Below, piece after piece: positions 3,724 through 58,232 of a DNA stretch of 64,000 bases. The position numbers and the translations under genes are program-made. The notes beneath the pieces were generated by a model that searched no databases, was not told the DNA's origin, and was given only the letters and a program-made list of their open reading frames with translations. The stretch's first letter is position 1. Each line of letters starts with the position of its first letter. Source of the stretch: an uncultured Verrucomicrobiae bacterium (GTDB lineage Bacteria; Verrucomicrobiota; Verrucomicrobiia; Opitutales; Opitutaceae); contig OY970130.1 of assembly GCA_963705935.1 (NCBI GenBank), positions 520,676 to 584,675 on the forward strand, given 5' to 3'.

Positions 3724-3849
3724 CTAGAGCTTGTCCCAGAAACGCTGATTTTGCGCGGTTAGTGTCTCTTGTAGCCGGCCTCGCCGAGGCCGGTCCGGGG
3801 TCGGCGACCCCGGCTACAGCTCGATCCCGCGCCCTGGGACAAGCTTTAG
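3724..3849. mobile_element. MITE-like element with 16-bp inverted ends enclosing a REP doublet
   Basis: ctagagcttgtcccag (3724-3739) vs ctgggacaagctttag (3834-3849), one mismatch; no ORF inside. Confidence 0.55.
3771..3817. repeat. GTAG-type REP doublet (two inverted REPs)
   Basis: GTAG-ccggcctc-gcc-gaggccgg followed by ccggggtc-ggc-gaccccgg-CTAC. Confidence 0.8.
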
Positions 3850-3859
3850 TTGGTTAGCC

Positions 3860-3890
3860 CGGATATTTCGCGAACGTCGCGAAATATCCG
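3860..3890. terminator. 14-bp perfect hairpin between convergent genes, possible terminator
   Basis: cggatatttcgcga-acg-tcgcgaaatatccg; no clear U tract. Confidence 0.4.
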
Positions 3891-3991
3891 CCCTCTGGGC
3901 CGACTTTGTCGGGGCCAACCGCAACGAAATCGCTCCGGCGCAGGCGGACGAAAATTCGGACGCTTCAACACTCTGTTCGTGAAAATTCGGG

Positions 3992-28933: not shown

Positions 28934-29794
28934 TCAGGTTTGGCCAGCGCCGGCGGGGGCGCCCTGCAAGCCGGGGGCGGCGGGCTCGTGGTCGGCAGCC
29001 TCGATCGCGACCGCCTCGGCGGACTGTTTCCAGGGCAGCGGGAACTGCCGGACAAACGTCGCGAAATCGATCAACTCGAACCGGCCGTCCCAGTGCTCGA
29101 CGATCGCGCTGAGCGACTCGACCCAGTCGCCGGAATTCAAGTAATGGATATCGCCGATCATCTTGTCGGCCGCGGTGTGAATGTGACCGCAGATCACGCC
29201 GCCGCAGCCGCGCTGGCGGGCGAGGTCGGAGATGTGCTCCTCGAATTTGGAGACGTGGCTGACCGCCGACTTCACGCGCGCCTTGATCGCGCGGCTCATC
29301 GACCAGTACTCCTTGCCGCGCCAGGCGCGCCAGGCGTTGTAGAGGCGATTCAACCGGAGCAGCGCCCGGTAGCCCCAGTCGCCGAGGTGGGCGAGAAACA
29401 CGAAGTTGCGGGTGACGGTGTCGAACACGTCCCCATGCAGGACCAGATAGCGGCCGCGCGGCCCGGTGTGCACGTACTCCTCCAGGATCTGCAGGTTCTC
29501 GAACTCGAGCGGCAGGAACGAGGCGAGGATGTCGTCGTGGTTGCCGCGCAGGTACACGACCTGCGTGTCGCGCTTCTCCAGCTTCTTCAGCACGATCCGG
29601 ATGAAGCGGGTGTGAGCCTTGGTCCATTCGCCGGAGCGCTTGAGCTGCCAGCCGTCGATGATGTCGCCGTTGAGGATCAGGGTGTCACAGCGGGTGTGCC
29701 GGAGAAAGTGATTCACCTCCTCGATCTTGCAGTCGGCGGTGCCAAGGTGCACGTCGGAGAGAATGACGGTCCGGACTCGAAGCAGCGATTTCAT
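28934..29794 (-). CDS. LpxH2/PlcP-like metallophosphoesterase
   Basis: LSDVHLG, NGDIIDGW, GNHD, HGDVFD, CGHIH, YLNSGDWVES. Confidence 0.85.
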   Translation of the reverse strand: MKSLLRVRTVILSDVHLGTADCKIEEVNHFLRHTRCDTLILNGDIIDGWQLKRSGEWTKAHTRFIRIVLKKLEKRDTQVVYLRGNHDDILASFLPLEFENLQILEEYVHTGPRGRYLVLHGDVFDTVTRNFVFLAHLGDWGYRALLRLNRLYNAWRAWRGKEYWSMSRAIKARVKSAVSHVSKFEEHISDLARQRGCGGVICGHIHTAADKMIGDIHYLNSGDWVESLSAIVEHWDGRFELIDFATFVRQFPLPWKQSAEAVAIEAADHEPAAPGLQGAPAGAGQT

Positions 29795-30744
29795 GGCACG
29801 ACGGGGGGTTCGGTGGTCAACCGTTCGACCGCCATTGGCGCCGCAAGATCGCCCACCGGGCTGTTTTCCGGAACCAGCAGGCGCAGGCTGGCCGGTTTGA
29901 CGCGGATCTGGACGATCCGGTCGGTGATATGGGTCTCGCCGTCAGTGTGGATCAGGCCGTCGCGCAGGCGGGAGATCGTGAAGCTGCTGTCGCGCAAGCG
30001 AATGACGTCGGGGCTCAGGTGGATCCGGCCGAGAAACAGCCGCACGATCAGGGGAATCGCCCCTGCCGGCCCGATGGGCTTCACCCCCACGAGATCCAGC
30101 AGGCCGTCGTCGACGCGGGCTCCCGGTGCGATCATCGCGTCGTTCCCGTACTGGTCCGAGTTCGTGGCCGCGACGAGCAGAAGGTCGAGCGTGAGGATCC
30201 CGTCGCGCGAGCGGATTTCGATCCGCTCGTGGCGCCGGTGCCAGAAGGCCGCCAGCGCGACCCGGGCGTAGGCGGCCAGGCTGCGGCGGGTGAGGCGGTT
30301 GAACCGCTGGCTGATCTCGGCATCGAAGCCGACCCCCATCGCATTGAAAAACGGCCGGTCGTTCGCCACGCCGGTGTCGATCGTGGCCACGCGGGCCGCC
30401 GGATCGACGGCCAGCGCAAGCGCGCGGTGCGGATCGGACGGCAGCCGCAGGTGCCGCGCGAGACCGTTGCCGGAGCCGCAGGGGATCAGGCCGAGCGAGG
30501 CGCGCATGTGGAGCAGCGCCTGTGCAACCTCGTTCATCGTGCCGTCCCCCCCCACCGCGATCACGCGATCGCAGTCTTCGCCAAGCGCGTCCCGCGCCAG
30601 CTCGGTGGCGTGTCCCGCGCCTTCGGTCGTCACGAGCGAAGCGTCGAGCTGCTGCGCGGCGATAAACTCGCGGATATGGGCGGGCAGCCACGGGCGGCCG
30701 CGGTTGCGGCCGGAGTGGGGATTGTAGATGAAACGGATCTTCAT
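29791..30744 (-). CDS. Diacylglycerol-kinase-family lipid kinase
   Basis: NPHSG, GGDGTMNEV, GSGNGLAR, GVGFDA, HTDGE; start at MKIRF. Confidence 0.9.
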   Translation of the reverse strand: MKIRFIYNPHSGRNRGRPWLPAHIREFIAAQQLDASLVTTEGAGHATELARDALGEDCDRVIAVGGDGTMNEVAQALLHMRASLGLIPCGSGNGLARHLRLPSDPHRALALAVDPAARVATIDTGVANDRPFFNAMGVGFDAEISQRFNRLTRRSLAAYARVALAAFWHRRHERIEIRSRDGILTLDLLLVAATNSDQYGNDAMIAPGARVDDGLLDLVGVKPIGPAGAIPLIVRLFLGRIHLSPDVIRLRDSSFTISRLRDGLIHTDGETHITDRIVQIRVKPASLRLLVPENSPVGDLAAPMAVERLTTEPPVVP

Positions 30745-32012
30745 GCGACGCGAGGGGTGGCGGCCGGAGCGGCGCCGGGAGTGCTGGCCGGTGCGAAGTG
30801 CGACCCAGGCGCGCGGGTCGTCGGTCGACCTCCGGCGAGCACATGGCGTGCAATCCGGTTGGCGGCATCGGGGGTGGCCATCCGGTCCAGGACTTCGCGC
30901 CAGTTGCGCCAGACGCGACCCCCGTCGGCGAACGCGGTCTGCAGCGCCGTCACCACCGCGCCGGGCGTTTCGGCCAGCGCACCGGCGCCGTGCCGCCGAA
31001 TGAGCTCGTAATTTCCCTCCTCCTGGCCCGGCACGACCTGGCTCACGATCATCGGGCAGCGGGCGGCAATCGCCTCCTGCGTCGTCGCTCCGCCCGCCTT
31101 GCTGACCACGGCGTGACGGGTCATCAGCAGATGCGGAATCTGGTCGGTCCACCCGAGAATTTGCGCCGGACGCCGGCGTGCGGCGGCGATCCGGAGGAGC
31201 TTGCGCCGCAGGCGGTCGTCGCGGCCGACGGCGCAGGTGATGTCCCAGTCGGTTTCCGTCAGGAGCCGCCGGGCCGTCTCGACGGCATGGCGGAGACCGG
31301 AGTTGATGATATGGAGGACGCGGGGCCTGGCGCCGGCCAGCAGGTCCGGTGGCGACAGCGCGGCCGACTGGGCCGAGAAAAAATCCGGCACGGGAAAGCC
31401 GTGCACGTGCACCGCGGTCCGCGGGACGCCGGCGGCGAAGAGGACCTCGGCCGAGTCCGCATTCGGGAGGAACCAGCCGTCGCATGGCGCCCGCCACCAC
31501 AGCGAGTGGATGCTGATCGAGTCCGTCACGACGTTGAAGACGGATGGGATCCATCCCTGCTCGCGTTGCAGGCGCTCGAGAAAAAACGCGTACAGCGGAT
31601 AGGTGCAGCAGATGGCGTCCGGCCGTTCGCGATCGATCAGGCTGGCGAGCGCGCGCATTTCGCAGCGGAAAAGCCACAGCCGCCGCTGGATGAGATTCGA
31701 CCGGTCGACCCAATCGTAAATCCGGCTCCACACCTGCGGCGCATCGTTGATCAGCCGTAGGTACATCCCCCGGCTGGCGGCGTTCAGCCGGGGCGAGGCG
31801 ACGGCGAAGAGGTCGACGACGCGGGCGACCCCCGGTCCCGCGGTGCGATCGAACCCGGCGGCCAGCGCGCGGGCGGCGGCGTTGTGGCCCTCGCCGTAGC
31901 CGGCGGTCAGGATCAGCACCCGCGCCGCAGCGGCCGTCGGCGGCGCCCGGTCGACGCGCGGTCGGGCGTGTCCCGGGTGGGCGGAGTCGGATGCGCCCGG
32001 GATCGGGTTCAC
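30741..32012 (-). CDS. MGDG-synthase/UgtP-family (GT28) glycosyltransferase
   Basis: TAGYGEGHNAAA, VVTD..IHSLW, SKAGGATT.E, PGQEEGN. Confidence 0.88.
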   Translation of the reverse strand: MNPIPGASDSAHPGHARPRVDRAPPTAAAARVLILTAGYGEGHNAAARALAAGFDRTAGPGVARVVDLFAVASPRLNAASRGMYLRLINDAPQVWSRIYDWVDRSNLIQRRLWLFRCEMRALASLIDRERPDAICCTYPLYAFFLERLQREQGWIPSVFNVVTDSISIHSLWWRAPCDGWFLPNADSAEVLFAAGVPRTAVHVHGFPVPDFFSAQSAALSPPDLLAGARPRVLHIINSGLRHAVETARRLLTETDWDITCAVGRDDRLRRKLLRIAAARRRPAQILGWTDQIPHLLMTRHAVVSKAGGATTQEAIAARCPMIVSQVVPGQEEGNYELIRRHGAGALAETPGAVVTALQTAFADGGRVWRNWREVLDRMATPDAANRIARHVLAGGRPTTRAPGSHFAPASTPGAAPAATPRVA

Positions 32013-33163
32013 GAAACCGGCACGGCGGGACGCGCGTTGCCGAGGACCCGCAGCAGGTCGGCCTCGAACTGGCCGACCACGTTTTCCCAGGACTGCTCCA
32101 GCAGCGAAGACCGGGCGGCGGCGCGCAGCCGGTCGCGGAGAGCGGGCCGCGTGGCGAGTTCCACCCCGGCACGGACGAAAGCGTCCGGGTCGTCGCGCCG
32201 CATCGAAATGCCATTCTCCCCATTCCGGATGAACTGCCGCGCGGCGGCGTAGTCGAATCCCGCCACGGCGAGCCCGCTCGCCATCGCCTCGGTCAGCACG
32301 TTGCCGAATGTTTCGGTGAGGCTCGCGTGCAGGTACACGTCCGACGACGCGTAGACAGCCGCCAGTTCCTCATGCGGAACGAACCCGGTGAACAGCGCAT
32401 ACCCGTGCGCACTTTGCAGGGCGGCGCGCAGCGGACCATCGCCCTGGAGCACGAACCGGCACTTCGGGTTGGCGGCGCGGATCGCGTCGAACGCGCGGAA
32501 GAGCAGGGGGTAGTTCTTCTCCGCGGCGATTCGGCCGACATGCAGCACGACGGGGTCCTCCGGCGCGGCACCCCAGGATGCACGCAGCGCCGCCGACCGG
32601 TGCACCGGCGAAAACTGGGCCGTGTCCACGCCGCGCGAAAGCAACCCCACGTTCGCGAACCCGAGCCGGAGGAGCTCGTCACGCAGCTCCACGGTCGGCG
32701 CGAACGTGCGCCGCGTCCGGTTGTGCACCCGCCGGAGCCAGGCGATCGCGGTCCGCTGCAACCCCGCCACGCCATAGTGCCGCAGGTACGTGTGGAAATT
32801 CGTGTGGAAGCTCGACGTCACCGGGATCTGGAGCCGGCGGGCGACGGTGACGGCCGACGCGCCGAGCGGACCTTCGGTCACGACGTGGACGAGATCAGGC
32901 CGGTCGTTCTGCCACATGCGGCGCAGCCGCTGGTACGCCGGCAGCCCGAACCGCATCGACGGATAGCCCGGAATCGGCAGTCCTGGCATGCCGATTGCGT
33001 TGAAACCGGGATAAGGCTTCCCGTTGACCCGATCGTTTCTTCGCGGATGCAGCACGGTCACCGCGTGGCCGCGGCGGGTCAGCTCGCGCACGATGTGGCC
33101 GAACGTCATCGCGACGCCGTTGATCTCGGGCGGGAAGGTCTCGGTGACAATGGTCAGGTTCAC
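32009..33163 (-). CDS. GT4 glycosyltransferase (Agt/MgtA-like)
   Basis: VTETFPPEINGVA, SFHTNF, RGVD, EKN, SLTETFGNVLTEAMASG; GTG start at 33163. Confidence 0.88.
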   Translation of the reverse strand: MNLTIVTETFPPEINGVAMTFGHIVRELTRRGHAVTVLHPRRNDRVNGKPYPGFNAIGMPGLPIPGYPSMRFGLPAYQRLRRMWQNDRPDLVHVVTEGPLGASAVTVARRLQIPVTSSFHTNFHTYLRHYGVAGLQRTAIAWLRRVHNRTRRTFAPTVELRDELLRLGFANVGLLSRGVDTAQFSPVHRSAALRASWGAAPEDPVVLHVGRIAAEKNYPLLFRAFDAIRAANPKCRFVLQGDGPLRAALQSAHGYALFTGFVPHEELAAVYASSDVYLHASLTETFGNVLTEAMASGLAVAGFDYAAARQFIRNGENGISMRRDDPDAFVRAGVELATRPALRDRLRAAARSSLLEQSWENVVGQFEADLLRVLGNARPAVPVS

Positions 33164-33212
33164 ATCAGCGGGAGGACAAAAGGACTCTTTTGTATGAAGA
33201 TGCGCCGAATTG

Positions 33213-33251
33213 GTGCCGAAGCGAAGGCGACGGGGTAACGATCCGGTGAAA
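33213..33251 (-). promoter_or_regulatory. Pho-box-like repeats upstream of the glycolipid operon
   Basis: Minus strand TTTCAC-cggat-CGTTAC (11-bp period), CGGCAC 22 bp further on; -10-like CATCTT at 33202-33197. Confidence 0.5.
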
Positions 33252-33328
33252 ACGAGCCAATGCAAGAAATGCCATAATTCGGGGTTGCACCGGCCCATTC
33301 GAATTCTAGCGTCGGCCCTTTTAGATTG

Positions 33329-38568: not shown

Positions 38569-38570
38569 GT

Positions 38571-38609
38571 CGCCACGGTTGTGTTACGGCGGGATGACGG
38601 CCGGGTCAT
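38571..38609 (+). promoter_or_regulatory. Four Pho-box-like repeats, 11-bp period
   Basis: CGCCAC (38571), TGTTAC (38582), GATGAC (38593), GGTCAT (38604). Confidence 0.55.
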
Positions 38610-38670
38610 TTTCTCGCGGCGGAGGTGAATTGCGATTGTCGTGCTCGCGATGAGGGCTGGTCTCGGGCCA

Positions 38671-39780
38671 ATGCCGTCACCAACGTTTCCGCCCGCGTTC
38701 TCCCTCATCGCTTCGCTGGGGCTCGCGCCGCTGCGGCCCCTGCACAACCTGGTCCGGCAAACGCAGGAGCGCATGCGTCCCCGGCAGCTGTCGGTGCACC
38801 AGTCGGCGACAGCCCGGGCCCGGATGACCGCGCTCCGGGCGGACGACACCGGCGCCCCGGATCGGTCAACGATCCTCCGCGAGTCCGGCGCGGGCCGGGT
38901 CCCGACCATCGTGCTGGGTGGCCTCGTGCCCGATGCCACCGAGCAGGTCTTTCTCCTCCGCCGGTTCCTGCTCAAGTCGGGCGACGTGTATTACGTGCAG
39001 TACCCACGAGATGGATTCTCGTTGGACGTCCTGTGTGCGCAGGTCGGCGACCTGGTGGACGATCTGGTGGCGGAGGGCCATGCCCCCATCATCCTGGCGG
39101 TGAGCTTTGGGGCGGGCCTGGTCCTGGAGTGGTTGCGGCGGCAGCGTCTGCGGGGGACGGAGCCATTGCTCGCGGGCATCGTGCTGGTCAGCCCCGTGTC
39201 GTGCGTGGCAGACCTGATCGGCGAAAATCCCGGGAAGCCGGCAACGCTGCTGGGCCGCGTCCTGAAGCCGTTTTTCGACCCCGGCGCGGTCGCGCTTTCG
39301 ACGGTGGAGAAGTCGCGCGCGATCTTTCGGCGGATGTTCGAGGCGGGCGCGCAAAACCGGATCGCGCTCCGGGCGCTGATGACGCCGGTCGAGATCGAAC
39401 GCCTGCGCGAGGCGGTGATGGACACGATTCGCGGCGTGACGCCACACGGCGCGCAGTGCCGGGTGCAGGCGTTGGCGGAAATGCGACCGCCGACCGGCTA
39501 CTTCAGCCCGGCGGCCCTCCCGCTCAGCAGTGTTCCCACGCTGATCCTGTTTGCCGAGCGCGAGGAAGTCGTGCTCGACGCGGCAGCGCCGGTCCGGCTG
39601 GCCCTGCAGCGCGCCGCAGCCGCCTATTTCCCGGAGGCAACGGTGGCGGAGGTGCGGGCGCGCCGCGGGAGACCTCCGGTGCAGCACGCGTCGCTGATCT
39701 TTCACGTGTTCGATTTTCTTCCGCATCTGCAGGGATTCTATCAGCGCGTGCGGCGGGGCGGCCTGGCGCTGGCGGCGTAA
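38671..39780 (+). CDS. Alpha/beta-hydrolase-fold protein
   Basis: Nucleophile elbow AVSFGAG, GIVLVSP, VPTLILFAERE, late His in VQHASL. Confidence 0.7.
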   Translation: MPSPTFPPAFSLIASLGLAPLRPLHNLVRQTQERMRPRQLSVHQSATARARMTALRADDTGAPDRSTILRESGAGRVPTIVLGGLVPDATEQVFLLRRFLLKSGDVYYVQYPRDGFSLDVLCAQVGDLVDDLVAEGHAPIILAVSFGAGLVLEWLRRQRLRGTEPLLAGIVLVSPVSCVADLIGENPGKPATLLGRVLKPFFDPGAVALSTVEKSRAIFRRMFEAGAQNRIALRALMTPVEIERLREAVMDTIRGVTPHGAQCRVQALAEMRPPTGYFSPAALPLSSVPTLILFAEREEVVLDAAAPVRLALQRAAAAYFPEATVAEVRARRGRPPVQHASLIFHVFDFLPHLQGFYQRVRRGGLALAA

Positions 39781-39786
39781 CGCCCG

Positions 39787-41385
39787 ATGACCATGACCAC
39801 CACGGGCGCGAGACCGCGGGCCGGATGGGTGCAGGGCGTCGTCGCCGCCGCGGCCGCGATCCGGAGCCGGCACGTGGGCCGGCGCCTGAACGCGGCGAAT
39901 GGCCTGGCCGCGGCGCAGCGCCGCATCTGGGGCGAACTCGTCGCGCAGTTCGGCCGCACGGAATTCGGGCGGACGGAAGGAATTGGCGCGGGGATGACGT
40001 ACGCGGATTTTCGCACGCGAGTCAGGCCGCGGATGTATGCGGACCTCGCTCCGGCGATCGAGCGGATGAAACAGGGCGAGCCCTCGGTGCTCTGGCCGGG
40101 GCGGTGCAGCCACTTCGCGGTATCCTCCGGCACGACGGCGGGGCGGACGAAGTACCTGCCGATCACCCGGCCGATGCTGGCTCACTTCCGGAGGGCGGGC
40201 CTCGACTCGCTCTGCTACTACGCCCGGCGCGCCGGATCGACGGCTGTGTTCCGCGGGCGGCAGCTGTTTCTCGGCGGCTCGACGGCGCTGGTCCCGCTGC
40301 CCGCGACCGGCCCGTTCCGCGCCTGGGCGGGCGATCTCAGCGGAATCACGGCTCTCAATCTGCCGGCGTGGGCCGAACGGTGCTGGTACGAGCCGGGCCG
40401 CCGGATTGCGCAGATCGGAGACTGGCCCGACAAGCTGCGGGCGATGGCCGAGCGCACGAGAACGCGCGACGTCCGGCTGCTTGCGGGCATTCCGAGCTGG
40501 ATCCTCGTGTTCGCCGAGACGATGCGACTGCATTCCGGCGAGCGAACGCTGAAGGACGTGTGGCCAAACCTCGGGTGCTTCGTCCACGGGGGCGTCCCGA
40601 TCGGTCCGTTCGCGGGTGAACTGCGGGAGGCGCTCGGACCCGGTGTCGATTTTCACGAGGTCTACCCGGCGTCCGAGGCGTTCATCGCCGCGCAGGACGA
40701 GGAGCCGGAGGCGGGGCTGAGATTGATCCACGACGCGGGGGTCTTCTTCGAGTTCCTGCCGATGGATCGGTTCGACGAATCGCGTCTGGCGGATCTCGCC
40801 GCCGAGGTCGTGCCGGCCTGGGAAGTCGTGGCGGGAGTGGACTACGCGCTCCTGCTGACCACACCGGGCGGGCTCTGCCGGTATGTGATCGGCGACGTGG
40901 TGAGATTCGTGTCCACCGACCCGGCACGACTGGTTTACGCCGGCCGGACGCAGCTCCAGCTGAGCGCTTTTGGCGAGCATGTGATCGAGAAGGAAGTCAC
41001 GGACGCGCTCACCGCCGTCTGTGCGCGACGCCGGGTCGCGATCGCGAACTTCCACGTGGCGCCCCGCTTCGTCGACGCGCGGGCCGGGATCAACCGGGGG
41101 CAGCACGAGTGGTGGATCGAGCTGAGGACGTCCGACGCGGCGCGGCTGAGCCCGACGGACGCGGCTGCGGAACTCGATGGCGAGCTGCAGCGGCTGAACG
41201 ACGATTACGAAGCCAAGCGCAAGGGCGGGGGTCTCAACCGGCCGCTCGTCCACGTCGTTCCTTCCGGCACGTTCGAACTCTGGCTGAAGGCGCACGGGAA
41301 ATGGGGCGGACAGCACAAGATGCCGCGCTGCCGCAGCGACCGCGCCGTGGCGGACGAACTGGCGGGCTGCCTGCTCGCAAGGTAG
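39787..41385 (+). CDS. GH3 (auxin-responsive) family acyl-acid amido synthetase
   Basis: SSGTTAGRTKYLP, YPASE, TPGGLCRYVIGD, DYEAKR, GQHKMPR. Confidence 0.88.
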   Translation: MTMTTTGARPRAGWVQGVVAAAAAIRSRHVGRRLNAANGLAAAQRRIWGELVAQFGRTEFGRTEGIGAGMTYADFRTRVRPRMYADLAPAIERMKQGEPSVLWPGRCSHFAVSSGTTAGRTKYLPITRPMLAHFRRAGLDSLCYYARRAGSTAVFRGRQLFLGGSTALVPLPATGPFRAWAGDLSGITALNLPAWAERCWYEPGRRIAQIGDWPDKLRAMAERTRTRDVRLLAGIPSWILVFAETMRLHSGERTLKDVWPNLGCFVHGGVPIGPFAGELREALGPGVDFHEVYPASEAFIAAQDEEPEAGLRLIHDAGVFFEFLPMDRFDESRLADLAAEVVPAWEVVAGVDYALLLTTPGGLCRYVIGDVVRFVSTDPARLVYAGRTQLQLSAFGEHVIEKEVTDALTAVCARRRVAIANFHVAPRFVDARAGINRGQHEWWIELRTSDAARLSPTDAAAELDGELQRLNDDYEAKRKGGGLNRPLVHVVPSGTFELWLKAHGKWGGQHKMPRCRSDRAVADELAGCLLAR

Positions 41386-41445
41386 CGTCCGGATGGTCGA
41401 TTCCGGCGAACCGGCGGCCGACCGCCCGGTCGGTGCCACCGCGTC

Positions 41446-42135
41446 ATGAAGAGGGCGGTCGAACTCCGGGGGCCGCTGTCGTCGCCGGGTCCGGCCCGGC
41501 GGCGCCTCTGGCTTGGGCTGTTCGCAATCTACGTGCTGGTCCCGGTGGCGGTCGGCGTTTGGGTGCCGCCCGGCGGCTGGATCCCCTCGCTGTGGCTGGT
41601 TTCGGCGCTGGCATGGTGGCGGCTGCGGCGCGATCCTGCCGGGCTGGTCGCGATCGGCCGTGCAGGTGCGGGCCGCTCCTGGCGCCGCGAAGTGACGCGC
41701 GTGCTGGTGAGATTTGCGCTTTCCGCCATGCTGCTGCTCGCAGCGATCGCGCTGGCCGCCCCGGACCAACTCTTCGACTGGCCCCGCCATCGCCCGTTGA
41801 TCTGGGCAACCGTCCTGGTGGCGTATCCGCTGCTTTCGGTGCTGCCGCAGGAAGTGCTTTACCGGCAGTTCCTGTTTCGCCGGCTTCGCGCACTCGGCCT
41901 GGACGATGGCGTGATCGCGCTGGCCAGCGCGGCCCTCTTCGGGTTCGTGCACGTGATCTACCGCAACGTTCCGGCTGTCGCGCTGAGCGCCATTGGCGGC
42001 TGGTATTTCGCCGACACCTACCGGCGCAGCGATTCGCTGGCGCTCGTCTGTGCCGAGCACGCGCTTTACGGCGCGCTGGTTTTCACCTCCGGGCTGGGCG
42101 CCAACTTTTCGCATCTCGCGCTCCGGCCGGTCTGA
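41446..42135 (+). CDS. CPBP (CAAX/Abi) family intramembrane protein
   Basis: PQEVLYR, ALFGFVH, EHALYG; multi-TM. Confidence 0.8.
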   Translation: MKRAVELRGPLSSPGPARRRLWLGLFAIYVLVPVAVGVWVPPGGWIPSLWLVSALAWWRLRRDPAGLVAIGRAGAGRSWRREVTRVLVRFALSAMLLLAAIALAAPDQLFDWPRHRPLIWATVLVAYPLLSVLPQEVLYRQFLFRRLRALGLDDGVIALASAALFGFVHVIYRNVPAVALSAIGGWYFADTYRRSDSLALVCAEHALYGALVFTSGLGANFSHLALRPV

Positions 42136-42188
42136 ACCGGCCGGATTGATGGGCGGTGGCGCGGGGTGACGAAATCGCGGCGGGGGAA

Positions 42189-42205
42189 CGTAACGCCGTT
42201 TTCAC
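42189..42205 (+). promoter_or_regulatory. Pho-box-like pair upstream of the CBS kinase
   Basis: CGTAAC-gccgt-TTTCAC; -10-like TACGGT at 42228. Confidence 0.45.
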
Positions 42206-42252
42206 GTGGCCGGGTCGCCTGGCGGCGTACGGTTTGCCACACCTCCGCCGCC

Positions 42253-44331: not shown

Positions 44332-44336
44332 GCGAT

Positions 44337-44353
44337 GTGAAATCGGTGTGACG
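44337..44353 (-). promoter_or_regulatory. Reverse-oriented Pho-box-like pair between kinase and phosphatase
   Basis: Minus strand CGTCAC-accga-TTTCAC. Confidence 0.4.
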
Positions 44354-44401
44354 TCGCGGCCTCGGGTTGAACCGCGTTGCCAGCAGCGGCAGGCTCGTCC
44401 A

Positions 44402-46280: not shown

Positions 46281-46955
46281 TCAGCGTCCGCTCGCGGCGG
46301 CGGCGCAGACGGCGGGTGCGCCGACCTGAACGATCTCGCGGCCCGGCAGCACGCAGGCGGTCAGCGCGCCGCCGCGCACGCAGCCGGTGTCGATGCCCAG
46401 CGACCAGCGCCGGCGCACCGGCACCGGGTGCGGGGTGTGCCCGTAAACCACGAAGGGCGGGCTGTTCCACAACTCGGACCAGTGCGGCGCGTCGGGGTAG
46501 TCGGACAGCTTGTGCGGCTCCCCGTCGGGGCCGACGACCTGGATGCGCGTGACGATTCGAGCCGGCTGCCCGCGCCACGGCCGGAAAGGCAGGAAGCCTC
46601 CGTGCACCAGGACCGTGTCGAGCTCCGGTACATGGAACGTCAGCGGCATCCGGGCCAGATAGCTCCAGTCCGCCGCGCTGAGCTGACCGAGCGTGTCGTA
46701 GTCGGATCTCTTCAGGTGGGTTGGATCACCGGTCCGGCGGTAGTTCAACAACCGCAGCTCATGGTTGCCGAGCAGCGCGCGATGGGCGTGACGGCGCGCG
46801 AGCGCCAGCACGCCGGCGCTGTCGGGACCGCGGTTCACCAGATCGCCGAGCAGGATGATCCGGTCGCTGCGGGTGGGCGCGAGCTTGTCGATCAGCGCGG
46901 CGAATTCGTCGGCGCAGCCGTGAATGTCGCCAATCACGATGATGCGTCCCTTCAT
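46281..46955 (-). CDS. PPP-family metallophosphoesterase (ApaH/PrpE/Ppn2-like)
   Basis: GDIHG, GDLVNRG, GNHE, VHGG, YGHTP, DTGCVRGGALTA. Confidence 0.88.
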   Translation of the reverse strand: MKGRIIVIGDIHGCADEFAALIDKLAPTRSDRIILLGDLVNRGPDSAGVLALARRHAHRALLGNHELRLLNYRRTGDPTHLKRSDYDTLGQLSAADWSYLARMPLTFHVPELDTVLVHGGFLPFRPWRGQPARIVTRIQVVGPDGEPHKLSDYPDAPHWSELWNSPPFVVYGHTPHPVPVRRRWSLGIDTGCVRGGALTACVLPGREIVQVGAPAVCAAAASGR

Positions 46956-47120
46956 CGGAGGGCGGGCGAAGATCGGCCGACGCGGCGGCGGCATCCGCGG
47001 GGCGGGAGTTCGAGGCGGCTCGGGATTTGCGGCGACACAGGTTCACCTAAACGTACTGGAACTCCGGCGACGGGGCGAGCGGAGACGTGCTCCGTAACCC
47101 GAACGCTACAATCGGGAGCC

Positions 47121-49221: not shown

Positions 49222-49276
49222 TTTTACGGAGTTGTCACCCGGACGCCACGCAACCGTAACACGCGACCCTCAATAT
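49222..49276 (+). promoter_or_regulatory. Pho boxes and -10 of the porin-pst-pho operon
   Basis: TTTTAC (49222), TGTCAC (49233), CGCCAC (49244), CGTAAC (49255); CAATAT at 49271. Confidence 0.7.
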
Positions 49277-49339: not shown

Positions 49340-50602
49340 ATGCTCAAACGAAACACAATCTGGCTCGCGCTGCTCGCCGGCGCCTCGCTCTTCGCGGCAT
49401 CCGCGACCGCGCAAGACAACAAGGCGCTTCTCGACGTACTCATCCAAAAGGGGGTGCTCACGGCCGCTGAGGCCGCGCAGATCTCCAAGGAAATGGCGAC
49501 GAGCAACTCCGCGACTGACGTGGCCACTTCCAAAGGCAAGTTTCTCCAGAAACTGACGCTCAGCGGGCGTTTCCAAACCCAGTATGCCGACCTGAACACC
49601 GACATCGATGGGGCGACCAGCAATCCTGCCAGCACCAACCACTTCTTCCTGCGCCGGATGTATCTTGGCGCCAAGGCTGACCTCGGCAACGGCTGGTCGG
49701 GCAACCTCAACTACGATTTCGCCGGGTCGACCTTCGATGCGGCGTTCGTGCAGTGGAAGCAGAGCGACGCACTCGTGCTGGATGTCGGCTTCCGCAAGGT
49801 GCCGTTCGGCCTCGAGGAATGGTACACGTCGAGCGGCAATCTCCGTGCGATCGAGCGTTCGCCGGCCACGCGCTTCTTCGTCGAGAGCAACAACGGCCGC
49901 CGCCTCGGCGCCGGAAGTTACCGGACGGGTATTTTTCTCGGTGGCAAGAACCCGATGGGGTTCTTCTACAACGTTGCGATCACAAATCCCGAGCGCGATG
50001 AGTCGGCCGCCGGCGTCACCAGCGCGGGCAGCTCCGCCAACAACAATGCGGCTTACTGGGGCAACGTCGGGTACAGCGGCAAGAGCGGGACCGTCACCTA
50101 TGTCGCCAGCGCGTCCGTCGGCGTGCTGCCCGACCAGGGGGGCAAGACACTCGGCACGGGTAACGATCTCATGGTGTACAATGCGTTCACCGAGATCACC
50201 AGCGGACCGTTCGACCTGCAGCTCGAGTACTTCGGCAGCAAAGACGACAATGGCGCGGCCGCCGGGAGGAACTCGAAGAGCTGGGCGTATTCCGTTCAGC
50301 CCGCCTTCAAGGTCAACAGCGTGTTCGAACTCGTGGGCCGCTACTCCTATGTCAATTCCGATGGCCGGGGCCTGAGCACCAGCGACCTGATCCGCTCGGC
50401 ACCGTCCGGCGGCACGATGAACGAGCTCACCGAATGGTTCGGCGGCTTCAACTACTACATCCGCGGCAATGACGTGAAATGGCAGCTCGGGTACATCTAC
50501 GGCGAGAGCAAGAACAACCTCCTCGCCACGGGCAACGTGGTCAAGGGGACCGGCAAGGCCAAGAGCAATGGCGTGCGCAGCCAGATCCAGCTCAATTTCT
50601 GA
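49340..50602 (+). CDS. Phosphate-selective porin (OprO/OprP-like)
   Basis: Signal peptide; FLRRMYLG, KVPFGLEE..SS, IERS; C-terminal Phe; precedes pstS. Confidence 0.8.
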   Translation: MLKRNTIWLALLAGASLFAASATAQDNKALLDVLIQKGVLTAAEAAQISKEMATSNSATDVATSKGKFLQKLTLSGRFQTQYADLNTDIDGATSNPASTNHFFLRRMYLGAKADLGNGWSGNLNYDFAGSTFDAAFVQWKQSDALVLDVGFRKVPFGLEEWYTSSGNLRAIERSPATRFFVESNNGRRLGAGSYRTGIFLGGKNPMGFFYNVAITNPERDESAAGVTSAGSSANNNAAYWGNVGYSGKSGTVTYVASASVGVLPDQGGKTLGTGNDLMVYNAFTEITSGPFDLQLEYFGSKDDNGAAAGRNSKSWAYSVQPAFKVNSVFELVGRYSYVNSDGRGLSTSDLIRSAPSGGTMNELTEWFGGFNYYIRGNDVKWQLGYIYGESKNNLLATGNVVKGTGKAKSNGVRSQIQLNF

Positions 50603-50627
50603 TTCCCCCGGCAGCTAAACTCCCAAC

Positions 50628-51629
50628 ATGAAAAAAATCCTGACGATTGCCGCCTTCGCGGCGCTCAGTTTCACCGCCTCCGCCCAGATGCTGATCAATG
50701 GTGCTGGCGCCACGTTCCCGCAGCCCATCTACACGAAATGGTTCGACGCCTATGCGCGGGTCGATCCGTCCGTGCGCTTCAACTACCAGGGCATCGGCTC
50801 CGGTGGCGGCCAGAAGCAGATCCTGTCCGAAACCGTCGACTTCGGGGCCTCCGACGGCCCGATGTCGGACGAGAATCTCGCCAAGGCACCCCGGACGCTG
50901 TGGCATATCCCGACAGTCGCCGGAGCGGTCGTGGTGAGCTACAACCTCCCGGGCAACCCGGTCCTCAAGCTCGATGGTCCGACGCTCGCCGGGATCTTCC
51001 TCGGCAAGATCACCAAGTGGAACGATCCGGCGATCGCCGGCCAGAATCCCGGCGTGACCCTGCCGGACAGCGACCTCGTGGTGGTGCACCGTTCGGATGG
51101 CAGCGGCACGAGCTACATCTTCACCGACTACCTGAGTTCGGTCAGCCCCGAATGGTCCACGAAGGTCGGCAAGAACACGTCCGTGAACTGGCCGGTCGGA
51201 CTCGGCGGCAAGGGTAATGCGGGCGTGGCGGGGCAGCTCAAGCAGTCCCCGGGTGCGATCGGCTACGTCGAGCTGGCCTACGCCAAGCAGAACAAACTGG
51301 CGTACGCCGACATGAAAAATGCCGCCGGCCAGTACATCACGCCCTCGCTGGATTCGGTGACCGAGGCGCTCGCCTCGGCGAAGATCCCGGACGACTTCCG
51401 TTTCTCGATGGTGAATCCCCCGGGCGAGAAGGCGTATCCGATTGCCGGTACGACCTGGCTGCTGGTCTACGAGCAGCAGAAGGATGCGACCAAGGGCCGC
51501 AAACTGGTGGAGTTCCTCAAGTGGGCCTACACCGACGGCGAAAAGATGGCGTCCACCCTCGACTACTCGCCCCTGCCGGCGAACGTCCAGGCCCGCGTGT
51601 TGGAGCGGGTGAACGCGATCAAGTTCTGA
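50628..51629 (+). CDS. pstS: Phosphate ABC transporter binding protein
   Basis: GAGATFP, GIGSGGG, DFGASD, HRSDGSGT, IGYVE. Confidence 0.96.
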   Translation: MKKILTIAAFAALSFTASAQMLINGAGATFPQPIYTKWFDAYARVDPSVRFNYQGIGSGGGQKQILSETVDFGASDGPMSDENLAKAPRTLWHIPTVAGAVVVSYNLPGNPVLKLDGPTLAGIFLGKITKWNDPAIAGQNPGVTLPDSDLVVVHRSDGSGTSYIFTDYLSSVSPEWSTKVGKNTSVNWPVGLGGKGNAGVAGQLKQSPGAIGYVELAYAKQNKLAYADMKNAAGQYITPSLDSVTEALASAKIPDDFRFSMVNPPGEKAYPIAGTTWLLVYEQQKDATKGRKLVEFLKWAYTDGEKMASTLDYSPLPANVQARVLERVNAIKF

Positions 51630-51648
51630 CGCGGCTGAGCTACTCGAC

Positions 51649-51673
51649 GGAGGGCGCGTCCGACGCGCCCTCC
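51649..51673 (+). terminator. Stem-loop between pstS and pstC (attenuator or mRNA stabiliser)
   Basis: ggagggcgcgtc-c-gacgcgccctcc. Confidence 0.55.
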
Positions 51674-51684
51674 CGTTCCGCCGC

Positions 51685-52656
51685 ATGAGCGAACTCGCCC
51701 CGCCCGCCCCCGTCCGTCCGACTCTGGCCCGTCCCGCCCGACAGCTGGGCGATGCCACGTTCCGCTGGCTGGCGCTGGCCGCCGCGCTGACCGTCGTGCT
51801 GCTGATCGTGCTCGTCGGCTTTGAACTCTATGCGGGGGCCCGGCAGTCGGTCCACCGGTTCGGGGCGAATTTTCTGGTCAGCACGACGTGGGATCCGGTT
51901 TCCGACCAATATGGAGCGCTTCCCTTCATCTTCGGCACGCTGGTCTCGTCGCTGCTGGCGCTGCTGATCGCCGTGCCGCTCGGCGTGGCGACCGCGCTTT
52001 TCCTCACCGAGATGGCGCCGCCGAAGCTGCGGCAGCCGGTCGTGATCGCGATCGAGATGCTGGCGGCGGTGCCCAGCGTGATTTTCGGACTCTGGGGCAT
52101 CTTCGTCATGATCCCCTGGCTGCGGGACCACCTTTTCGTCTGGTTGCGCGATACGCTCGGATTTCTCCCGTTTTTCCAGGGCCCGATCTACGGGGTCAGC
52201 ATGCTCGCGGGCGCCGTGATCATCGCGATCATGATCCTGCCGATCATCACCTCGGTTTCCCGTGAGATCCTGCGCTCGGTGCCAAACCTGCAGCGCGAGG
52301 CGGCGTATGCCCTCGGTGCCACGCACTGGGAAGTGATTCGCATCGCCCTGCTGAGCTACGCGCGCCGCGGACTGTTCGGCGCGGCGGTGCTGGGTCTCGG
52401 CCGCGCCCTGGGCGAGACGATGGCGGTGACGATGGTGATCGGCAACCGGCCCGACATCAGTGCGTCGCTCTTCGCCCCCGGCTACACGCTGGCGAGCGTC
52501 GTCGCCAACGAATTCACCGAAGCCACGAGCGACCTCTACCTGAGCTCGCTCTTCGAACTCGGTCTCGTGCTCGTCGGGTGCACGATCCTGGTGAACGCCA
52601 TCGCGCAGCTGATGCTGCGGACGATCGCGGGCCCGGGAACCGGGAAGGTGACGTGA
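51685..52656 (+). CDS. pstC: Phosphate ABC transporter permease
   Basis: WDP..YGALPFIFGT, LAAVPSVIFGLWG, REAAYALGAT, RALGETMAV. Confidence 0.95.
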   Translation: MSELAPPAPVRPTLARPARQLGDATFRWLALAAALTVVLLIVLVGFELYAGARQSVHRFGANFLVSTTWDPVSDQYGALPFIFGTLVSSLLALLIAVPLGVATALFLTEMAPPKLRQPVVIAIEMLAAVPSVIFGLWGIFVMIPWLRDHLFVWLRDTLGFLPFFQGPIYGVSMLAGAVIIAIMILPIITSVSREILRSVPNLQREAAYALGATHWEVIRIALLSYARRGLFGAAVLGLGRALGETMAVTMVIGNRPDISASLFAPGYTLASVVANEFTEATSDLYLSSLFELGLVLVGCTILVNAIAQLMLRTIAGPGTGKVT

Positions 52657-52660
52657 ACGC

Positions 52661-53536
52661 ATGAGCACCTCCCCGAACGCGACGTGGATTCCCAGTGCGG
52701 GGTTCGCGCGCTGGCGCCGGATCAAGAGCCAGCTGATGCGGATCGTGCTCGGGCTCTGCGCCCTGGCCGTCGCCGCGCCGCTTTTCCTCGTCCTCTATTT
52801 CCTGATTCGCGAAGGGGCGTCGTCGCTCGACTGGAATTTCTTCACCCAGCTGCCGAAACCGACGGGCGAGTCGGGCGGCGGGATGGCGCACGCCATCGTC
52901 GGCACGATCGAGCTGCTGCTGATGGCGGCGGCGCTGGGCGTCCCGATCGGCGTGATGGGCGGAGTCTATCTTGCCGAATACGGTTCGGAGCGTGCCAGTT
53001 ACTGGATGCGGTTCGGCGCGGACGTCCTCAACGGCGTGCCGTCGATCGTCTGGGGCATGGTCGTCTACGCGCTGCTCGTCGTGCCCTTCAAGACCTTCTC
53101 CGCCTACGCCGGCGGTGTGGCTCTCGGGCTGATCATGATCCCGCTGGTGATGCGCACGACGGAAGAGGTCCTCATCCTCGTGCCGCAAAGTTACCGCGAG
53201 GCCGGGCTGGCCCTGGGCATTCCCCGCTGGAAAATCGTGACGGTGATCGTCCTGAAGACCGCGCTCAAAGGCATCATCACCGGAGTGCTGGTGGCGCTGG
53301 CGCGGGTCGCCGGCGAGACCGCGCCGCTGCTGTTCACCGCGCTCGGCAACAATTTCTGGAATCACAACCTGGCGGAGCCGATCGCCTCGATTCCCCTGCA
53401 GATCTTCTCGTACGCGATCTCGCCGTACGACGACTGGCACCGCCAGGCGTGGGCGGGTGCGCTCGTGCTCATGCTGCTGATCCTGGCGTTGAACGTCACC
53501 GTGCGCGTGATCTCGCGCGATCGGCCGAACACCTGA
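52661..53536 (+). CDS. pstA: Phosphate ABC transporter permease
   Basis: [34 protein letters not shown]. Confidence 0.95.
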
Positions 53537-53549
53537 GCGCCCGGTTCCC

Positions 53550-54395
53550 ATGACGCTTTCCCTTGCCGCCGAAATTCCGCCTTTGGCCCAACCTGCTTTT
53601 CCGGCCGCCCAGCCGAAACCGATGACCACCACCAACGAGCTCCCGGCGTTCGACATCGCCGGATTTTCGCTCTGGTACGGCGTGCGCCAGGCGCTGTACG
53701 ACGTGAGCATCCGGATCCCGGCGCGGCAGGTGACGGCGGTCATCGGCCCCAGCGGCTGCGGCAAGTCGACGTTTCTCCGCGCGCTCAACCGCATGCACGA
53801 GATCACGCCGGGGACCCGGATGGCCGGCCAGCTCCGGTTCTTCGGGGAGAATCTCCACGGCCGCGACGTCGACCCCGGCCAGGTGCGCCGGCGCGTGGGC
53901 ATGGTTTTCCAGAAATCCAACCCGTTTCCGACGATGTCGATCGCCGAGAACGTGCTGGTCGGACTCCGGCTGAACGGCGTGCGCGACCGGGCGTTCCTCG
54001 CGCGGCGGCTGGAGGAGTCGCTCCGGATGGCCGCGCTCTGGGACGAGGTGAAGGATCACCTGGCGCGATCCGGCACGAGTCTCTCCGGTGGTCAGCAGCA
54101 GCGGCTGTGCATCGCCCGCGCGCTGGCGGTGCAGCCCGACGTGATCCTGATGGACGAGCCCTGCTCGGCGCTCGATCCGCTCGCCACGGCGAAGATCGAG
54201 GAATTGATTCAGCAGTTGCGCGATCGCTTCACGGTGGTGATCGTCACGCACAACATGCAGCAGGCCGCACGCGTTTCCGACCACACGGCGTTTTTCTACC
54301 TCGGCCGGCTGATCGAGTTCGGCGATACGCGTAACGTCTTCACCAACCCCTCGAACCCGCAGACGGAAGCCTACGTCTCCGGCCGGTTCGGATGA
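53550..54395 (+). CDS. pstB: Phosphate ABC transporter ATPase
   Basis: [39 protein letters not shown]. Confidence 0.96.
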
Positions 54396-54411
54396 GGGTG
54401 CGCCATGCCCC

Positions 54412-55092
54412 ATGACCCACTTTGACGAAGAGATGAGCAAGCTGAAGGAGACGCTGCTGGCGATGTCCAGCCATGCCGAGTCATCCGTCTCGCGGGCGAT
54501 GCGGGCGCTGGTCGAGCGCGAGGATGCGCTGGCGCATCAGGTGATCGAGGACGACACGATCCTGGACCAGTTCGAGATCGAGGTGGACGATCTCTCGATC
54601 CACCTGCTGGCGAAGGCGCCGCTCGCGACCGACCTGCGGCTCATCACCGTCGCGATGAAGATCTCGCAGAACCTCGAACGGGTCGGCGACGAGGCGGTCG
54701 CGATCGCGCGCCGCGCGCTGGATCTCAACCGCGAACCGCAGCTCAAGCCGTATGTCGACCTGCCGCGGATGGCGACGATGGGGCTCGGGATGCTGCGCGA
54801 CTCGCTCACCGCGTTCATCGACCGCCGGCCCGAGCTGGCCCGCACGATTGTGCCGCGCGACCACGAGGTCGACGACCTCAACCGCCAGCTTTACCGGGAG
54901 CTCTCGAGCTTCATGGTCGAGCGTCCCTCGAACATCACCCGCTGCCTCTGCCTCATGTCGGTTTCCAAGCGGCTCGAGCGGATTGCCGACCATGCGACCA
55001 ACATTGCGGAGGAGATCGTTTACCTGTACGAAGCGCGGGACATCCGCCACACCGGCTTGAAAGCCAATGAAACCGAAGATTCTCCTCGTTGA
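54412..55092 (+). CDS. phoU: Phosphate signalling protein PhoU
   Basis: PLATDLR, LERVGD, LERIADHATNIAE. Confidence 0.95.
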   Translation: MTHFDEEMSKLKETLLAMSSHAESSVSRAMRALVEREDALAHQVIEDDTILDQFEIEVDDLSIHLLAKAPLATDLRLITVAMKISQNLERVGDEAVAIARRALDLNREPQLKPYVDLPRMATMGLGMLRDSLTAFIDRRPELARTIVPRDHEVDDLNRQLYRELSSFMVERPSNITRCLCLMSVSKRLERIADHATNIAEEIVYLYEARDIRHTGLKANETEDSPR

Positions 55093-55753
55093 CGACGAGC
55101 CCGACGCCCTCGAGGTGCTCGGGTTCAAGCTCCGGGAAGCCGGATTCGTGCCGGTGGCGGCCACCGACGGCGCCAAGGCCCTGGCCGCGGTCAAGGCCGA
55201 CCGTCCGGCCCTGATCGTGCTCGACCTGATGCTGCCGGAGGTGGACGGACTCGAGGTCTGCAAGATCCTGCGGCGCGACCCGGCGACGGCTGCGATTCCG
55301 ATCCTGATGCTGACGGCGAAGGCGGCGGAAATGGACCGCGTGCTCGGACTCGAGCTGGGCGCGGACGACTACGTCACCAAGCCGTACAGCCCGCGCGAAC
55401 TCGTGCTGCGGATCAAGAAGCTGCTCGCCCGGCAGAAGACGACCGACGAGCCGGAGCCGCGCCTGCGGATCGGCAGCCTCGAGATCGACGTGCCGCGGCA
55501 CGAGGTGAAGATCGCCAGCGTCCCCGTCACGCTGACCGCGACCGAGTTCAGGCTGCTCGAGATCCTCGCCCGGCGGCGCGGACGCGTGCAGACCCGGGAC
55601 CGGCTGCTGCAGGACGTCTGGGGCTACGAGACGGCGATCGACACACGCACGGTCGACACGCACATGCGGCGGCTGCGGGAGAAGCTGGGCGAATCCGCGG
55701 ACTTCCTGGAGACCGTTCGTGGCGTCGGCTACCGTTTCGTCGCCGAAACCTGA
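55067..55753 (+). CDS. phoB: OmpR-family response regulator PhoB
   Basis: LDLMLP, GADDYVTKP, TRTVDTHMRRLREK, TVRGVGY; operon position. Confidence 0.88.
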   Translation: MKPKILLVDDEPDALEVLGFKLREAGFVPVAATDGAKALAAVKADRPALIVLDLMLPEVDGLEVCKILRRDPATAAIPILMLTAKAAEMDRVLGLELGADDYVTKPYSPRELVLRIKKLLARQKTTDEPEPRLRIGSLEIDVPRHEVKIASVPVTLTATEFRLLEILARRRGRVQTRDRLLQDVWGYETAIDTRTVDTHMRRLREKLGESADFLETVRGVGYRFVAET

Positions 55754-55797
55754 ATGCGGGTTGACCCTCCGGCGCCTGGCGCCTCCGCTGCTGTTTC

Positions 55798-56973
55798 ATG
55801 CTGGCCACCCTGCTGATCGCCGTTTGCGCCGTGCTCGGGCTGCTCGTCTGGCGACTGCGGGATCAACTTGGCGCCCGGGAGGCGGAGCAGGTGCAGCTGC
55901 TCGAGCGGCAGCGCGGACGCTACGAGCGCGAGGAGCAGGCGCTCGCCGCCCAGACCCAGTCGATGCTCGACAGCATGATTGAGGGCATCGTGGTCCTCGA
56001 TCCGCTGGGCCGGATCGCGCGGGCGAACCGGGCGGCGGAGGCGATCTTCGGGTTCTCCCGGATGATGACCGGCGGCACGTTGCTCGAAGCCGTGCGGAAC
56101 CACGAGGTGGTGGAGCTGGCGGTCCGCGTGGCCGACGAGGGCGGACCCATCGAGCAGGAGATCCGGCTCGAGCGGCCGGCTGCCCGGATGCTGGAGGTGA
56201 GCGCCGTCGCCTTGCGTAACCCGGCCGGAGAACCCGCCGGCGCCGTGCTCGTTTTCCACGACGTCACCCGCCTGCGCCAGCTGGAGGCCATGCGCCAGGA
56301 GTTCGTCGCCAACGTCAGCCATGAATTGCGCACGCCGCTGTCGGTGATCAAGAGCGCGGCCGAGACCCTGCTCGACGGCGGCCGGAACGACGCGGCCGTG
56401 ACGGCCCGGTTCCTCGAGATCATCGACAAGCACGCGACGAGGCTGACGTCGATGATCGACGACCTGCTGATGCTTTCGCGGCTGGAATCCGAGCGGCAGG
56501 AGCTGGCATTGGTGCCCGTGACGCTGCGGGCGCTGGCCCAGGAGGCGCTCGACGACGCCGCATTGATGGCATCGTCGCGCCAGATTTCGCTCGAGAACCA
56601 GTTGCCGGCCGGGCTGCTGGCCAAAGCGGACCCCGACCAGCTGCAGCACGTGTTTGGCAACCTGCTGAGCAACGCGATCAAGTACGGACATCCCGGCGGC
56701 CATGTCACCGTCGCCGGCCGGCTGATCGGCGGGCAGCGCGTCGAAGTGTCGGTGCGCGACGACGGGCCGGGGATTCCGCCGGAGGCGCAGGGGCGGATAT
56801 TCGAGCGGTTCTACCGGGTGGACAAGGCGCGCTCGCGGGAGCAGGGCGGCACCGGGCTGGGCCTGTCGATCGTGAAGCACATCGTGCAGGCCCACGGCGG
56901 CGAGGTGCGGGTCGAGAGCGAAGTGGGGAAGGGCGCGGAGTTCTTCTTCACGCTCGGCCGGGCCGAAGCGTAG
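55798..56973 (+). CDS. phoR: Sensor kinase PhoR
   Basis: FVANVSHELRTPL, NAIKY, ERFYRVDKARSR..GGTGLGL. Confidence 0.9.
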   Translation: MLATLLIAVCAVLGLLVWRLRDQLGAREAEQVQLLERQRGRYEREEQALAAQTQSMLDSMIEGIVVLDPLGRIARANRAAEAIFGFSRMMTGGTLLEAVRNHEVVELAVRVADEGGPIEQEIRLERPAARMLEVSAVALRNPAGEPAGAVLVFHDVTRLRQLEAMRQEFVANVSHELRTPLSVIKSAAETLLDGGRNDAAVTARFLEIIDKHATRLTSMIDDLLMLSRLESERQELALVPVTLRALAQEALDDAALMASSRQISLENQLPAGLLAKADPDQLQHVFGNLLSNAIKYGHPGGHVTVAGRLIGGQRVEVSVRDDGPGIPPEAQGRIFERFYRVDKARSREQGGTGLGLSIVKHIVQAHGGEVRVESEVGKGAEFFFTLGRAEA

Positions 56974-58141: not shown

Positions 58142-58232
58142 GAGAAAGAGGTGGGCGCGGAGCGGCGGCCTCGCGTTCCGGCGGGTTCGCCGCGACGGTT
58201 GGCGGACTGGGCCGGAACCAGGCCGTCTCGCA

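Follow-up and report, generated by a model that had tools for sequence, protein, structure and literature searches.

Analysis of a 64,000-nucleotide stretch of DNA (hereafter the window) from an uncultured Verrucomicrobiae bacterium of the Opitutaceae (GenBank assembly GCA_963705935.1, contig OY970130.1, positions 520,676 to 584,675) identified two adjacent genes, coding for an alpha/beta-hydrolase-fold protein and a GH3-family acyl-acid amido synthetase, that fairly probably form a two-gene module for the synthesis of a phosphorus-free aminolipid and are predicted members of the PhoB regulon. By homology with OlsH of the planctomycete Singulisphaera acidiphila, the GH3 enzyme would adenylate a free fatty acid with ATP and Mg and pass the acyl group to ornithine or another amino acid at its alpha-amino group, giving an N-acyl amino acid (a lyso-aminolipid). 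By analogy with OlsI of the same organism, the hydrolase would most likely add a second, ester-linked acyl chain to yield a phosphorus-free acyloxyacyl aminolipid. As a PhoB-regulon module, the pair would contribute to membrane remodeling at phosphate limitation alongside a PlcP-like/glycosyltransferase operon in the same window.

The window DNA has a high GC content (~69%) and is part of a 5.16-Mb genome in a single contig. An earlier note made from the sequence (the original prediction) had described four hexamers in exact 11-bp register followed by three co-oriented genes separated by 6 and 60 bp, and this layout was confirmed by reading the sequence. The Pho-box-like array occupies positions 38571..38609 of the forward strand, 62-100 nt before the ATG at 38671, with the hexamers CGCCAC (38571-76), TGTTAC (38582-87), GATGAC (38593-98), and GGTCAT (38604-09) at an exact 11-bp period. 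On the 3' side of the array are three open reading frames (ORFs) on the same strand, namely the hydrolase partner of GH3 (38641/38671-39780), the OlsH-like GH3 synthetase (39787-41385; 532 aa) 6 bp downstream, and a CPBP/Rce1-like membrane protein (41446-42135) after a further 60 bp. The hydrolase start was set at the ATG at 38671 (38671..39780; 369 aa) because an N-terminus of the MPALSLAPALS type was conserved in 20 orthologues, and this is probably the true start rather than 38641 or 38650.

The original prediction of a GH3 enzyme with intact adenylation motifs was upheld, as all three Pfam domains were present (GH3 N-terminal, GH3_M, and GH3_C; 94.5, 55.5, and 69.5 bits, respectively) along with nucleotide-binding motifs I-III (SSGTTAGRTK, YPASE, and GGLCRYVIGD). 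The NCBIfam model NF052613 (OlsH_GH3_orni) matched the protein with 355.7 bits (E 3.7e-106) over model positions 14-511 of 524, compared to 320.7 bits for a GH3 paralogue elsewhere in the genome and 235-399 bits for GH3s linked to distant members of the hydrolase family. The Singulisphaera olsH-olsG-olsI locus was located by back-translation of the published OlsH motif GMWSHLIGD, and alignment of its OlsH with the window GH3 gave 35% identity over the full length (542 columns; E 7e-84), pairing Ser114 with OlsH Ser115, which is essential (PMC12493201), and S296 with S293. On the basis of sequence comparison, the window GH3 is predicted to use ATP for joining a free fatty acid to an amino acid at its alpha-amino group. 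Plant GH3s such as JAR1 (AtGH3.11) share the three-domain architecture and the nucleotide-binding motifs, although their sequence similarity is distant and they conjugate hormones without a hydrolase partner.

The chemistry proposed here has a published precedent. In S. acidiphila, ornithine is joined to a free fatty acid by the GH3-like OlsH, which uses ATP and Mg, and the alpha/beta-hydrolase OlsI then adds the ester-linked second chain. This third route to ornithine lipids depends on neither OlsBA nor OlsF (Rivera-Najera et al., J Biol Chem 2025; PMC12493201), and the Opitutales are among the orders listed with OlsH homologues in a 2026 review (PMC12971839). Consequently, the original claim of a new system could not be maintained and its statement that bacterial GH3 function is largely unknown was outdated by OlsH (PMC12493201), while its proposal of a GH3 forming an N-acyl amino acid together with an acyl-handling alpha/beta-hydrolase agrees, by analogy, with the OlsH/OlsI logic demonstrated in Singulisphaera. 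Its suggestion that the route is OlsB-independent also stood, as the OlsB/OlsF-type N-acyltransferase domain (PF13444) was not found in this genome and the OlsH/OlsI logic does not involve OlsB. Compared to Sinac_1599/1601 (OlsH/OlsI), the pair has the same GH3 motifs and length and an upstream alpha/beta-hydrolase-fold gene in one operon, and the two systems have in common that OlsB/OlsF were not detected in the genome, together with a connection to growth without phosphate. The differences are a partner hydrolase from another, narrow family to which OlsI is undetectable as a relative, the lack of an OlsG methyltransferase gene between the two genes or elsewhere, a GH3 that scores under the equivalog cut-off, and a host in the Verrucomicrobiota (Opitutaceae).

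The partner hydrolase belongs to a family of its own. It gave a sub-threshold Pfam match to Abhydrolase_6 (22.7 bits) and no NCBIfam model matched it or its distant relatives, while a profile search of 1.84 billion representative proteins returned a family of only 115 clusters at E<=0.001. Within the Verrucomicrobiota, it was found in 10 of 26 Opitutaceae genomes and in none of 274 genomes from 59 other families. The original prediction of a Ser hydrolase with an AVSFG elbow was correct in that the elbow is present, whereas its description as atypical was overstated since G frequently occupies the first elbow position among the orthologues. Ser145 (in the elbow), His339, and either Asp181 or Glu298 are predicted to be catalytic, and family alignments showed all four positions to be invariant or nearly so. 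A confident AlphaFold model (predicted local distance difference test, pLDDT, 85; predicted template modeling score, pTM, 0.86) displayed a canonical alpha/beta-hydrolase core with a helical lid.

A survey of 120 other Opitutaceae genomes, with genus counts that include this genome, identified GH3 in 83 genomes and 47 of 63 genera, and the hydrolase in 45 genomes and 32 of 63 genera. In 43 of these 45 genomes, the hydrolase gene immediately preceded GH3 in the same orientation, the remaining two lying at contig breaks, and the genes flanking the pair varied from locus to locus. The linkage extended to distant members of the hydrolase family, for which the contexts of seven proteins representing six cluster lineages were read (two proteins shared a cluster, and the contig of an eighth was too short): five of the six lineages had GH3 as the neighboring gene, before or after the hydrolase and frequently overlapping it by 4 bp. 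Other genes in these distant contexts included phoB-phoR-phoU, a divergent porinO/P-pstS operon, Ppx/CHAD, and GT4 glycosyltransferases. In one distant locus (L051:861-2765), the hydrolase-family member was followed by a diaminobutyrate-2-oxoglutarate transaminase gene, a neighbor that may hint at a different diamino-acid head group in some lineages.

The third ORF did not share this conservation. It carried the Pfam Rce1-like/CPBP domain (43.7 bits) and, as had been noted originally, QE replaces EE, such that it reads QEVLYR where the catalytic motif EExxxR would be expected. Homologues were identified in two of the 120 family genomes, both far from any GH3, and none of the 25 other hydrolase-GH3 loci examined, distant lineages included, had a CPBP gene. 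A system of three components, with the hydrolase, GH3, and CPBP protein acting jointly and the last finishing or exporting the product as first proposed, would fit the co-oriented genes, the 60-bp gap, and the lack of a terminator-like site between GH3 and CPBP, and co-transcription of the two in this strain is possible. Nevertheless, the varying flanks speak against such a system and the lack of co-occurrence largely refutes it, making it extremely improbable, and the GH3-CPBP gap also lacks a Pho-like array of its own. The original prediction had named co-occurrence of the trio across genomes as its own test; the trio did not recur and the hydrolase-GH3 pair alone did. The CPBP gene is a strain-specific neighbor and not a system component, and the conserved pairing, variable flanks, and unlinked CPBP together identify the hydrolase and GH3 as a self-contained two-gene module.

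Phylogenetic analysis of GH3 provided the main reason for assigning the hydrolase an OlsI-like role. Singulisphaera OlsH was sister to GH3s partnered with the window-type hydrolase family (Shimodaira-Hasegawa-like approximate likelihood ratio test, SH-aLRT, 99), from which we infer that an OlsI-like partner was replaced by non-orthologous displacement. The two partner families were mutually exclusive in the two genomes compared, as the Singulisphaera genome had no match to the hydrolase profile (built from 21 Opitutaceae sequences) and this genome had no OlsI orthologue, the OlsI query yielding only generic matches of 26-28 bits. The window hydrolase shares with OlsI the fold, the catalytic Ser, and a position in the same operon as GH3 (6-bp gap), without homology in sequence: OlsI is a canonical Abhydrolase_1 protein (80 bits) whereas the window hydrolase stays under the Pfam cut-offs, and on sequence grounds the two are not homologous at the family level, their relation being a common fold.

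In the corrected tree, all Opitutaceae GH3s formed one clade relative to OlsH, and an initial grouping of the window GH3 with OlsH apart from the paralogue was dropped. The window GH3 was closest to copies from other genera, with 66% identity to that of Opitutus sp. ER46, and three genomes of the same genus had no hydrolase and GH3s only of the second-paralogue type; the pair may therefore have been acquired within the Opitutaceae or retained differentially. The second GH3 paralogue (53% identical; minus strand, G000:C1:4824538-4826124, corresponding to 2539-4125 of locus L033) is without a hydrolase, has no Pho-like array upstream, and adjoins genes for a redoxin and a YggS-like protein. A hydrolase-GH3 pair in Nibricoccus likewise adjoins redoxin and YggS-like genes, and this neighborhood may be the ancestral GH3 site.

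The regulatory prediction was based on two matrices, one derived from the regions upstream of the hydrolase-GH3 pair in 20 other genomes (pair matrix) and the other only from promoters of pst operons in 11 further genomes of the Opitutaceae (pst matrix), and the scans covered 10.3 million positions of this genome. With the pst matrix, positions 38570-38602 scored 16.6 bits and ranked as the eighth best distinct site in the genome, where nine of the scanned positions reached 16 bits or more and all top eight sites were intergenic; 11 of 21 pair promoters scored at least 11 bits. In the other direction, the pair matrix, with which the window array scored 14.1 bits, ranked the porinO/P-pst promoter second genome-wide (24.9 bits; 23.0 with the pst matrix) and the promoter of a second pstS gene (pstS2) sixth, and in other genomes it detected sites scoring 15-25 bits ahead of 11 out of 14 pst loci. 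The Pho-box reading of the original prediction was thus supported, as the 11-bp array is beyond chance and the pair and pst promoters detect each other in both directions. Since the array is of the same type as those of pst operons, the pair is predicted to lie in the PhoB regulon.

The reference array in the window (49230..49262, minus strand) precedes the porinO/P-pstSCAB-phoU-phoBR operon (49340-56973) and has the same motif as the array of the hydrolase-GH3 pair, in the opposite reading relative to its gene. Within the operon, a phoB-like OmpR-family response regulator (55067-55753) and a phoR-like PAS histidine kinase (55798-56973), both on the forward strand, were assigned by Pfam and by their position after pstSCAB-phoU, and this pair would be the candidate regulator binding the array upstream of the hydrolase. 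Highest in the genome with 25.6-27 bits was an array at G000:C1:3240109-3240141 (L025:1110-1142), which precedes approximately 500 bp of lower-GC sequence without a long ORF, ahead of a DnaA-N-like ORF, and might point to a small Pho-regulon gene or RNA that is missing from the annotation. Two further Pho-like arrays at 42186-42218 and 44335-44367, at the starts of genes for a CBS hybrid histidine kinase and a CBS-SpoIIE phosphatase, were doubtful and not counted (16.8 and 16.5 bits with the pair matrix, and 3.7 and -2.7 with the pst matrix).

A second promoter element, G(G/C)TTT(C/G)nnTTTGC(C/G), was found in 14 of 21 pair loci (L007, L009-L013, and L017-L024) at 23-41 nt from the ATG, separated by 5-8 nt from the end of the Pho-box array, while it was absent at positions 38610-38670 of the window and none was seen in pst promoters. 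This arrangement would suit an activator site replacing the -35 element, and the second element may represent the -10/start-site portion of a promoter of unusual type. An Rfam scan of the leader region gave no match and a sigma-70 consensus scan found no promoter.

Several results weigh against the favored reading of an aminolipid module in the PhoB regulon, and three of the alternatives draw on them. The first concerns the direction of regulation, as in 17 of the 21 pair loci, the window included, the direction of the array relative to its gene is the reverse of that seen at every one of the 13 pst sites. With an inverted array activation is not assured, and the sign and geometry of regulation are not readable from the sequence. 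The array might then be bound by PhoB and repress the pair, or be bound by a different OmpR-family regulator, so that the pair would not be induced at low phosphate; the PhoP-repressed tag promoters of Bacillus, with boxes on the other strand, provide a parallel for repression. However, in the Salmonella PhoP regulon reverse-oriented boxes still activate, the core and flanks of the arrays match the pst motif with the mutual detection described above, and 14 of the 21 arrays end 5-8 nt before the conserved element in the position of an activator site replacing -35. Other aminolipid genes are moreover Pho-induced (PMC12971839), and repression or control by another regulator is regarded as unlikely.

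The second concerns the reaction of the hydrolase. BLASTP of the hydrolase against Sinac_1601 gave E 0.21, and hhalign against OlsI gave a probability of 43% over 95 columns, confined to the N-terminal half of the common fold. The structural neighbors in the PDB were generic, namely esterases, polyhydroxybutyrate (PHB) depolymerase, dehalogenases, and the membrane phospholipase A 6i8w. A transferase and a hydrolase therefore cannot be told apart by structure, and the acyltransferase role is suggested by analogy and gene linkage. With the same GH3 chemistry, the partner could instead be a true lipase, phospholipase A, or thioesterase that frees fatty acids from phospholipids or acyl carriers for GH3, in which case the pathway would yield an N-acyl amino acid with one chain (a surfactant, signal, or lyso-lipid), or a housekeeping acyltransferase would supply the second chain. 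This alternative is in line with the esterases and phospholipase A among the structural neighbors; an intact Ser-His-acid triad suits either reaction, and scavenging of phospholipid acyl chains would suit the Pho regulon. It also agrees with the requirement of OlsH for free fatty acid, its inactivity in living E. coli, attributed by the authors to scarce free fatty acid, and the O-acylation of the lyso-lipid by E. coli extracts without OlsI (PMC12493201). In contrast, the GH3-linked alpha/beta-hydrolase of the sole characterized pathway is an O-acyltransferase (PMC12493201), and the apparent swap of partner families on close GH3 branches suggests equivalent roles, such that a fatty acid-releasing partner is rather unlikely.

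The third concerns the substrates. The window GH3 missed the OlsH equivalog cut-off (355.7 versus 620 bits), and its specificity for ornithine is therefore not established. It might conjugate a non-lipid carboxylic acid of the aromatic or hormone-like kind, as do plant GH3s, with the hydrolase serving as an esterase or amidase on that metabolite and the phosphate link being incidental; GH3 enzymes accept many acyl acids, and other GH3 specificities are expected outside the planctomycetes (PMC12493201). Against this stand the full-length identity to OlsH, the Pho boxes conserved across genera, and the recurrence, in lineages unrelated to one another, of pst, pho, Ppx, and glycolipid genes as neighbors, which make a non-lipid substrate very unlikely.

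The remaining points against the aminolipid module concern distribution and background. Many Opitutaceae GH3s occur without the hydrolase, and the linkage was patchy on the GH3 tree, where at least seven changes are forced. In one genome, a 48-aa hydrolase remnant lies directly upstream of an intact GH3 (G018:C3:71533-71673), which looks like decay of the partner gene in progress. No OlsG homologue was found in this genome, and a literature search returned no lipid data for the Opitutaceae and nothing useful on their aminolipids.

The novelty of the module lies in the distinct, GH3-dedicated family of partner hydrolases and in a family-wide, statistically strong, and oddly oriented Pho-box link, rather than in a new principle, as both the chemistry and the connection between Pho and aminolipids are already known. 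In Sinorhizobium meliloti (PhoB), Serratia (olsF pho box), and Vibrio cholerae (OlsF/PhoBR), aminolipid genes likewise follow a Pho box and serve membrane remodeling at phosphate limitation (PMC12971839), although the OlsBA/OlsF enzymes are unrelated acyl-acyl carrier protein (ACP)-dependent acyltransferases, and here the array has the reverse orientation compared to the family's pst promoters. The OlsHI route has so far been demonstrated in one planctomycete only, while the same GH3 step with a different helper was identified in roughly half the Opitutaceae genera sampled, as well as in further lineages, tied to the Pho regulon by cis-elements and neighborhood. As a wider and tentative proposal, considered somewhat short of probable, the Opitutaceae and several other lineages would use a variant of the GH3 aminolipid pathway in which OlsI was displaced by an unrelated GH3-dedicated hydrolase family, the head group is perhaps not ornithine, and PhoB drives expression from an inverted array in a promoter architecture distinct from that of pst. 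If true, the third aminolipid pathway would extend to the Verrucomicrobiota, common in soil and freshwater, and the 115 clusters without a Pfam or NCBIfam model would constitute a new family of GH3-associated acyl-handling enzymes, with the arrays providing a first Pho-box model for the Opitutaceae that is usable for regulon prediction.

The window as a whole is a phosphate island. In addition to the pst operon, it contains on the minus strand a further metallophosphoesterase gene (46281-46994) and genes for a PitA (PHO4) phosphate transporter and its PhoU_div partner (57083-58871), and no Pho-like array was found upstream of either at the thresholds used. The original prediction had placed the module near a glycolipid operon, and such an operon was identified 5.4 kb upstream of the pair (28934-33251, minus strand), coding for a PlcP-like metallophosphoesterase, a diacylglycerol (DAG)-kinase/YegS-like protein, and a glycosyltransferase resembling monogalactosyldiacylglycerol (MGDG) synthase. 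It corresponds to glycolipid remodeling of the PlcP-Agt type, which is phosphorus-sparing and probably co-regulated with the hydrolase-GH3 module but is based on another chemistry (DAG glycolipids) and stands outside that module. A Pho-like array in the pst-type orientation was present at this operon (33222-33254), scoring 14.4 bits with the pair matrix and 8.1 bits with the pst matrix.

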